DNA of 63,059 nt, the filler included, from Rhabdomonas costata (Eukaryota): NCBI GenBank assembly GCA_019059605.1. It is 48 parts of 48 records of this genome, joined end to end, with 100 filler letters (N's around TTAATTAATTAA, not from the genome) between each part and the next. Parts side by side here need not be neighbours in the genome. Positions count along the whole stretch, not along the records: positions 40,797 to 42,012 come from JAHMHO010023255.1; 47 more parts are not named here. One strand, 5' to 3'. Shown here piece by piece: positions 40,823 through 42,140 of the stretch. Within the stretch, counting starts at the first letter, position 1. Each line of letters starts with the position of its first letter. Below the pieces are notes generated by a model, which was not told where the DNA came from, did no database searches, and was given only the letters and a program-made list of their open reading frames with translations. The translations under genes were made by a program, and so were the position numbers.

Positions 40823-41979
40823 TTATGATCGTGACACTCTCGCTGACGCATTGCGGCCTGAGGTTCATCCTGACGGGTCCAAAATTTTGTCCTATGGCGA
40901 GGAAGAGGAGTGGATGTACATCATTCGGGAAGGCCGTGTGGCGATGATTGGTTTCCCCTCCTTTCTTTCAAGTCACTTTTGTTAAGATCGTCGGGTTCTG
41001 CATGGTCACCCCCCAAAGGACCTCTGCCTCCCGGTCGTCCCACACTACCGTTGTTCTTTTCCCAGCCCGTTATCTTTTTGTTTCAATTTAAAGGGTGCAC
41101 AATTGGATGGTTGGATTTATGTCAAATACCTAATGCTTGCTTTAGGTCCATGGAAAACTGAACTTCATTAAACTTTACAACTTTATTTTCGCCCGGCTTT
41201 TCCCCCGTTTATACGTTTTCTCATAATTTGGTGAAAAGCTGCCCTTACCGCAGGACGCTCACTGGAAAGCGGAGAGCACATCAAGATATGCGAGTTCCGC
41301 GAGGGTCATCATTTCGGAGAGCTGGAGTTTGTCAACACCCATCCGTACATCACTGACGCTGTCTGCATTGGTGCGGCTTCTCCGCGTTCGCCTGTTTCTC
41401 TATTCTTGGAGGTTTTCTGCCACTCAGTGCCATCCTGGGATTTGTTTTCAGGTCCCACGAAAGTTGTGAAATTGAACCGCTACCACATTGAGCTGTGCAT
41501 GGTATGGTAACCATGTTTCTCCTATAATTACAACCGGTTGCCGACGCAAGTCTTCTTCAGTGATTCAGTGATGTGCAGGACTTAGCCGGTATATTTTGCA
41601 ATTACCAGGAGACTTGACTTTTGGTCTGTGTTCATGGCTGCTCAACGGGCATACCAGTCACAAAGGTGATTCCCAAGAGACACCAATGAGATGTGGTCTG
41701 GGCCCCAGCTACAGCCGTTGCGGTTTCGTCATTACCATCTGTTTTCAAGAGTTGTCCTTTGACCTTCACGGTTGAAGCATATTGAAAGCTGCTCAACCGG
41801 GGGATTGCACTCTTCACCCTTCCTTTCCATTGCTTCCCCACCCCATCTCTTCTGTGCCCTACCGTTCAGAGCAGCATTAGGCAGATGCTCTTCGCCAACT
41901 TCAATAACCCCGTGTTCAGCTACTATAGGGAGAAAATGCTGGCACGCTCACTGAAGTACATCGGCAGAGCTGGGAGAAG
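40823..41979 (+). CDS. PKAR: PKA regulatory subunit-like protein, CNB-B domain, euglenozoan (trypanosomatid-like) type. Exons 40823-40950, 41254-41370, 41452-41501, 41870-~41979
   Basis: Spliced translation: YDRDTLADALRPEVHPDGSKILSYGEEEEWMYIIREGRVAMI|GRSLESGEHIKICEFREGHHFGELEFVNTHPYITDAVCI|GPTKVVKLNRYHIELCM|SSIRQMLFANFNNPVFSYYREKML. This is collinear with trypanosomatid PKAR motifs as I recall them (LADAL, YGEEGEWLYII, CEF..GDHIGELEFLNNH, KLNRRHFEMC, YEYY). All three introns are GT-AG and phase-consistent. Confidence 0.88.
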
Positions 41980-42140
41980 GCGAGCCCCCACTGTCTCTTC
42001 AGGTTCCCACCCNNNNNNNNNNNNNNNNNNNNNNNNNNNNNNNNNNNNNNNNNNNNTTAATTAATTAANNNNNNNNNNNNNNNNNNNNNNNNNNNNNNNN
42101 NNNNNNNNNNNNGGGGTTTGGTGATTTTCTGTTTCAACAG

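Follow-up and report, generated by a model that had tools for sequence, protein, structure and literature searches.

The closest described relatives of the gene reported here are the nucleoside-gated protein kinase A (PKA) regulatory subunits (PKAR) of trypanosomes. In Trypanosoma brucei PKAR (TbPKAR) the substitutions E311A/E435A reduce inosine potency 1556-fold, which marks the second glutamate of each pocket as the main switch. The lid tyrosines have an 82-fold effect on affinity, and the alpha-D lid was called a trypanosomatid-only feature (PMC10959531). A divergent Leishmania protein, LdPKAR3, binds nucleoside analogues and not cAMP, so that in a second paralogue the sequence signature predicted the ligand class, and Bodo saltans has PKAR1, PKAR3 and a canonical PKAR (PMC11006142). 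Here we describe a PKA regulatory-subunit gene from the free-living euglenid Rhabdomonas costata, found in a 63,059-nucleotide stretch of DNA (the window). The window consists of 48 unrelated contigs of 1208-1217 bases each with N-TTAATTAATTAA-N spacers between them, and since these are joined separate contigs adjacency within it carries no information. The locus lies on the contig at 40797-42012 (G000:C23255, where G000 is this genome). Its four exons are the middle part of a real, spliced gene, and we consider it likely that the product is a euglenid-specific, cAMP-insensitive PKA regulatory subunit built of two modules.

A spliced gene with two tandem regulatory modules

We searched for homologues with the open frame over exons 2-3. 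The search gave 45 candidates, and one longer protein, P0002, has 631 residues and the EukProt label Rhabdomonas costata. When spliced, the four exons give a stop-free frame of 142 residues that is an exact substring of P0002 (residues 178-319). A single 1329-base contig from sequencing run X4 skips all three introns at the predicted places. In the genomic-type runs X1 and X3 the intron sequence is covered and none of the three splice joints is present. All three runs come from one sample, and no run matching the locus is recorded as RNA; we treat the X4 contig simply as a spliced contig. Because X4 belongs to this sample and P0002 may derive from it, the contig and the protein are not independent of each other. 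Past 42002 the X4 contig continues into sequence encoding residues 320-329 of P0002, which places both modules on one spliced molecule. Retention of intron 2 would insert 27 residues directly behind the cassette; the spliced form is the only one observed.

These results bear out the original prediction that this is a spliced PKA regulatory-subunit gene of a non-trypanosomatid euglenozoan. The splice junctions, which it had proposed to confirm in RNA, are supported by the X4 contig with the reservation on sample and library just given. It had also described the four exons as one CNB-B domain ending at 41979. The exons do splice together, but the coding sequence runs from the A-site Tyr178 to a second inhibitor-like motif and the last exon stops at 42002. 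The tandem design was missed because the second module lies mostly off the contig.

At the Pfam cut-off P0002 shows four cNMP-binding stretches and no further family. With a module profile made for this analysis, the order inhibitor site, CNB-A, CNB-B appears twice, at residues 8-299 and 310-594, and a single genomic exon, the last in the window, encodes the close of module 1 together with the second inhibitor-like motif. By Pfam there is no LRR, no D/D domain and no kinase or membrane channel domain; a PKG or a cyclic-nucleotide-gated channel was rejected for lack of the latter two. Only nine residues precede the first inhibitor site, and the orthologues likewise start short. Module 1 has an R-R-x-A/S/T-hydrophobic site (RRTAV, residues 11-15) and the Arg/Asp kinase contact (R159, D185). 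The same design is present in other euglenids: Euglena gracilis P0003 and E. longa P0004 are 48% identical to P0002 over 94-98% of the length. The MMETSP protein P0258, which clusters with P0006, and a partial protein from JGI, P0020, have it as well. Between genera module 1 is 54-59% identical and module 2 40-44%, which makes module 2 the faster-evolving. Two further loci of G000 hold exons of P0002, L007 (residues 43-177) and L005 (residues 402-530).

Nucleoside-type pockets and placement in the family

Pocket residues named in PMC10959531 were mapped onto P0002 by aligning it with T. brucei PKAR (P0215). We found that site B1, the B pocket of module 1, keeps 11 of the 14 TbPKAR site-B residues (R413, H430, G432, E433, E435, N438, H440, P480, Y484, Y485 and K488) and has Phe for Y482, Ile for V443 and Tyr for N442. 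In its cassette G241, E242, E244, N247 and H249 correspond to Tb G432, E433, E435, N438 and H440, while Y251 stands at the Arg position. The lid set is also present (P289, Y293, Y294 and K297, with partners R221, N247, H239 and H249), although the motif (K/N)YxYY is kept only in part, the cap being Phe and the residue before it Val. Site A1 retains G308, E309, E311, A320 and the cap Y370 (in P0002 G116, E117, E119 and Y178) and differs in having Cys (C126) for T318 and Ala for V319. In module 2, site A2 retains the Gly, both Glu, Pro-Cys and the cap Tyr, and the cassette Glu, Pro-Cys and capping Tyr are found in all five second modules compared. In site B2 the first Glu is replaced by Asp, or by Ala in Euglena, and both His440 and the YY lid are missing.

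No P0002 pocket has the phosphate-binding Arg, and the canonical Ala plus Arg cassette occurs in none of the four. On this ground we rejected a canonical PKA regulatory subunit. The claim of Glu in the canonical Ala position and of a missing Arg therefore holds (E242 and Y251 in B1). The tandem Tyr, which had been assigned to the C-helix, belongs to the alpha-D lid (PMC10959531). Overall, the ligand of module 1 is very probably of the nucleoside class, as in the nucleoside-gated PKAR of trypanosomes.

We then compared P0002 with the described systems. With trypanosomatid PKAR/PKAR1 (T. brucei 6FLO and 6H4G, T. cruzi 6FTF and 6HYI) it shares Glu for Ala and no Arg in both cassettes, the histidines, Asn, Arg413, the Pro hinge, the alpha-D YY lid, K488, the inhibitor-CNB-A-CNB-B order and the same clade. 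Unlike these proteins it has no N-terminal LRR, continues into module 2 after alpha-D, has a Phe cap and carries Ala in the pseudosubstrate where they have a phosphorylatable Thr. The identity is 34%, and the P0002 gene, unlike theirs, is intron-rich and from a free-living euglenid. Leishmania PKAR3 as described in PMC11006142 and P0002 both have pockets of the cAMP-insensitive type, no D/D domain and a similar length, but PKAR3 has a long disordered N-terminus and one module whereas the extra length of P0002 is a C-terminal second module. The trees contain no labelled PKAR3, and P0002 is set apart from it by architecture. By architecture P0002 thus belongs to neither PKAR1 nor PKAR3. Canonical cAMP-dependent subunits (RI/RII; E. 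gracilis 6RSX) share the CNB pair, an RRxA-type pseudosubstrate and, in module 1, the R240/D266-type contact; they differ from P0002 in the phosphate-binding Arg, in the single module and, in many but not all members, in having a D/D domain.

To place P0002 among its relatives, three homologue searches, less the query frame and 10 duplicate cluster members, provided 247 proteins. From 244 of these we obtained 365 modules of at least 200 profile positions. Site B has Glu and no Arg in 211 modules, and 209 of them form one clade together with two incomplete modules (FastTree support 0.999, and 0.995 without cassettes and alpha-D). The two outsiders belong to P0134, a CNB-kinase fusion, and P0146, which groups with it. 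Removing the cassettes and alpha-D leaves module 1 of P0002 inside this nucleoside-type clade, so the tree that had been proposed as a check agrees with the prediction. A quick IQ-TREE run on 50 chosen rows splits the clade from 12 canonical rows with an SH-aLRT of 98. The best PDB matches of P0002 point the same way, with 6FTF (3.8e-55) and 6FLO (2.3e-52) ahead of RI-beta (7.4e-50), by a small margin. For a canonical control sequence RI comes first, with a lead of over 40 orders of magnitude. In the ESM Atlas, residues 285-631 matched generic cNMP clusters only.

The clade comprises 153 proteins. All 40 with a taxon label are euglenozoan (8 euglenid, 15 diplonemid and 17 kinetoplastid), but 113 are unlabelled and the set has no labelled heterolobosean or jakobid, so that a restriction to Euglenozoa is not implied. 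The label prefixes Hpha, Sspe, Rhum and Tbor were expanded to what we take to be their genus names. Three labelled proteins outside the clade (two from Gefionella, one from Diphylleia) are canonical. In G000 itself at least six further loci have nucleoside-type B cassettes (L003, L004, L006, L008, L009 and L013), and L014 has a canonical cassette. These loci, together with L010 and L011, hold exons of further PKA regulatory-subunit paralogues. A search of G000 for a PKA-like kinase domain gave partial matches only, at 35-36% identity.

Nucleoside-type modules occur singly in 118 proteins, in twos in 13, in threes in 19 and as five in one. Such arrays are found in 7/8 euglenid, 7/15 diplonemid and 2/17 kinetoplastid labelled proteins (Papus and Neobodo), and in none of the labelled trypanosomatid proteins, for which the search covered lengths of 270-861 residues with a PKAR1-like seed. 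Within the P0002 orthogroup, modules 1 and 2 each form their own clade (support 100). In approximately unbiased (AU) tests an internal duplication gives p=0.57, with a likelihood 2.07 above the free quick tree. A joint clade of module 1 and PKAR1 gives p=0.46 and is not rejected; in the quick tree module 1 branches outside PKAR1. The suggestion of a divergent paralogue of the nucleoside sensor is therefore right as to the sensor clade; a paralogue and a deep PKAR1 orthologue are indistinguishable by these tests.

Individual arrays differ in composition. P0047 from Entosiphon sulcatum has five nucleoside-type modules in 1787 residues, with A pockets decaying toward the C-terminus. P0048 from Gefionella okellyi (3779 residues) has three adenylate kinase domains followed by six canonical cAMP-type modules, each with an inhibitor site. 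Because such cAMP-type arrays exist, the tandem PKA regulatory subunit is not tied to the nucleoside pocket. In three-module proteins of diplonemids and free-living kinetoplastids (P0016, P0005 and others) modules group by position across lineages. This hints at an array in the diplonemid-kinetoplastid common ancestor, with good support for module 3 only.

The second module and the segment leading to it

We found that the stretch from the lid into the second inhibitor-like site (residues 293-320) is the most conserved one measured, with 21 of 28 columns invariant in five aligned sequences. Flanking regions have 24/64, 40/140 and 4/140 invariant columns, the last figure being lowered by the aberrant C-terminus of P0006. 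The junction measures 23-24 residues in four orthologues, compared with 26-127 in the 52 other junctions measured. Within it, G-R-x-G-R-R-x-A occurs in 6 of the 247 proteins, all from the P0002 orthogroup, and it matches the core of the published PKI(5-24) sequence (PMC5059767). As in PKI, the core follows a segment that aligns with a helix; unlike PKI, it is embedded between CNB domains and has no support from sequence searches. In all six proteins, moreover, the motif Ala is followed by Pro, where the inhibitor consensus R-R-X-S/(A/G)-hydrophobic calls for a hydrophobic residue (PMC5059767). The pair R240/D266 was named as the kinase contact of PKA regulatory subunits (PMC11006142). We found that its Asp is Gly or Ala in all five second modules, while over the 209 nucleoside-type modules the position is Asp in 199 and Glu in five. 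Module 2 thus departs from both the consensus and the contact pair.

From these data we propose the following model. Module 1 would act like trypanosome PKAR, its RRTAV pseudosubstrate and R159/D185 holding a catalytic subunit. A purine nucleoside would enter B1, alpha-D would close over it, A1 would then fill and the kinase would be released. Module 2 appears to be a partly degenerate copy in which A2 probably still binds nucleoside and B2 probably does not, and its usual CNB-based docking surface for the kinase would be weakened. Since a short, near-invariant segment joins the B1 lid helix to the second inhibitor-like site, that site is probably also shifted or masked when B1 takes up its ligand.

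Several results weigh against parts of this model. The Ala at the V319 position of A1 is the residue found in canonical sites. B1 varies among the orthologues, which have Asp or His for the first Glu and, in Euglena, Trp for H430; the pocket may therefore differ in ligand or be relaxed. In an earlier case sequence alone failed to predict an altered specificity (Bachmaier 2019, PMC6440977). The PDB margin over RI-beta is small, as noted, and module 1 is no closer to TbPKAR (34%) than to a canonical RI-like sequence (33%). Residues 1-42, 320-401 and 531-631 of P0002 were not found among the G000 contigs. The role proposed for the linker is read from its conservation, and a phmmer search with the 30-residue alpha-D segment against PDB returned no solved chain at E up to 10.

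What module 2 does can be read in different ways. With a probability we put just short of even, it would be an accessory that does not bind kinase, serving as a nucleoside sensor, anchor or scaffold in place of LRR or D/D, with the basic segment acting in localisation or protein binding. The lost contact Asp, alpha-D YY and B2 consensus and the faster evolution of the module all fit this role, and trypanosomatid PKARs employ unrelated N-terminal anchors (PMC11006142). The retained A2 residues fit it less well, as does the distance from motif to CNB-A2, which is the usual one for an inhibitor site. The accessory role does not conflict with the model favoured for module 1. Alternatively, the chain may mimic an R2C2 tetramer, in which both modules hold a catalytic subunit, the second gripped in a PKI-like manner by alpha-D and G-R-x-G-R-R-x-A, so that closure of the B1 lid would free two kinases. 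Two inhibitor-like sites without a D/D domain, a motif confined to the orthogroup, the invariance of the segment and the shortest junction measured argue for it. We nevertheless regard it as unlikely, given the Pro after the Ala and the contact Asp missing from every second module; in addition, the PKI-like motif was spotted post hoc, and Gly/Arg-rich stretches often precede inhibitor sites. Failing the strict consensus is not decisive either way, because 64 of 198 complete nucleoside-type modules also miss it. The remaining probability falls to a mixed or other role.

Two further alternatives bear on module 1 and on the chain as a whole. The original prediction had suggested that PYIT in the B1 cassette could change the ligand preference, which would allow a modified or pyrimidine nucleoside, or none. 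Among 209 nucleoside-type modules this is the only one with Tyr at the Arg position; A444 has become Thr and the capping Tyr has become Phe, and the first Glu is altered in orthologues. The orthologues, however, have Asn (three) or His (one) in place of the Tyr, Phe caps 28 of the 209 modules, and the lid and ribose contacts of R. costata are intact. In TbPKAR, changing the Arg-position residue to Val or Arg (mutants 3 and 4) barely alters the inosine response (PMC10959531). We therefore take PYIT as a private change at a tolerant site, have rejected it as a conserved specificity switch, and rate another ligand as improbable. Finally, the four-CNB protein might be an assembly chimera of two PKA regulatory-subunit genes, as the genome is in fragments, the two CNB pairs are not joined on any single genomic contig and X4 may have given rise to P0002. 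But module 1 finishes in the same genomic exon that carries the second inhibitor-like motif, and four other proteins, found in separate data sets, show this order and junction too. Since other species share the design, a chimera is so unlikely as to be nearly negligible. The likely reading remains a two-module subunit whose first module is nucleoside-gated.

Features of the R. costata locus (all on the + strand; positions are those of the window, residues those of P0002)
Feature	Position	Residues	Content	Evidence
Exon 1	40823..40950	178-220	A-site capping Tyr178 (Tb Y370), Asp185 of the kinase-contact pair, start of CNB-B1 barrel	exact P0002 match, spliced contig, residue map
Intron 1	40951..41253		GT..AG, 303 bases	spliced contig and P0002 match
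Exon 2	41254..41370	220-259	holds B1 ribose-binding cassette	exact P0002 match
B1 ribose-binding cassette	41313..41357	F240-D254	FGELEFVNTHPYITD	residue map against TbPKAR
Intron 2	41371..41451		GT..AG, 81 bases, in frame, stop-free	spliced contig and P0002 match
Exon 3	41452..41501	259-275	last barrel strand, alpha-B	exact P0002 match
Intron 3	41502..41869		GT..AG, 368 bases	spliced contig and P0002 match
Exon 4	41870..42002	276-319	alpha-C, hinge Pro289, capping Phe291, alpha-D lid, second inhibitor-like motif; donor GT at 42003	P0002 match, spliced contig, residue map
Alpha-D lid into second inhibitor-like site	41921..42001		lid residues Y293, Y294 and K297; YY at 41921-41926	orthologue conservation
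G-R-x-G-R-R-x-A motif	41963..41986	G307-A314	followed by Pro	pattern count and printed PKI(5-24) sequence

Elsewhere in the window, Pfam searches of 16 of the 161 long open frames, including the 353-residue frame at 54082-55143, gave no family at the curated cut-off.

Nucleoside-type subunits outside the trypanosomes

The homologue set contains further combinations of domains and pockets. Six proteins of 1534-1749 residues (P0098, P0101, P0107, P0111, P0124 and P0154) join one nucleoside-type inhibitor-CNB-A-CNB-B module to PAS and a Ser/Thr kinase, with an HATPase-like domain in four, and these are candidate nucleoside-sensing kinases. In P0247 (Diplonema papillatum), P0249, P0248, P0075 and P0147 a canonical-like site A stands beside a nucleoside-type site B, as typed by two columns only. 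They are possible mixed cAMP/nucleoside sensors, like TbPKAR mutant 6. The A pockets of P0025 (Peranema), P0049 (Ploeotia) and P0053 have the nucleoside-type Glu plus the phosphate-binding Arg.

Our search of the literature, which covered titles and the beginnings of abstracts and not theses, subscription papers or supplements, found no nucleoside-type or tandem PKA regulatory subunit in euglenids or diplonemids. It found 6RSX in no paper, and the main texts of PMC10959531, PMC11006142 and PMC6440977 contain no word beginning with 'euglen'. A general sentence in PMC10354285 ties Euglenozoa to an absence of cAMP-dependent PKA, without analysis of a euglenid PKA regulatory subunit. Specialists may already know of a wider distribution, because an unpublished E. 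gracilis structure is in PDB and our search was limited. The pockets of this euglenid tandem chain are of the nucleoside type so far described only in trypanosome parasites. The structure 6RSX, deposited as cAMP-dependent, and the canonical cassette of L014 argue that euglenids keep both types of PKA regulatory subunit.

The presence of the complete pocket in 8 euglenid and 15 diplonemid proteins places the switch from cAMP to nucleoside at the euglenozoan ancestor. This suggests that the switch long predates parasitism. A complete de novo purine pathway exists in diplonemids and phototrophic euglenids (PMC7052976), which makes an adaptation to purine scavenging or parasitism an unlikely origin of the switch. 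In a fuller scenario, nucleoside-gated PKA would have arisen in the last common euglenozoan ancestor beside cAMP-PKA, in purine-making cells. Single-chain arrays holding several kinases without dimerising would then have followed, and in the P0002 orthogroup the lid helix would double as a PKI-like anchor, one ligand event freeing two kinases. Taken as a whole we hold this to be quite unlikely. If the lid does serve as such an anchor, it would be an allosteric design absent from the PKAs described in the papers cited here. The tandem design poses a separate question, that of PKA stoichiometry and cooperativity without a dimerisation domain. Whether nucleosides act as second messengers or as metabolic cues can be tested in Euglena gracilis, which has both P0003 and 6RSX.
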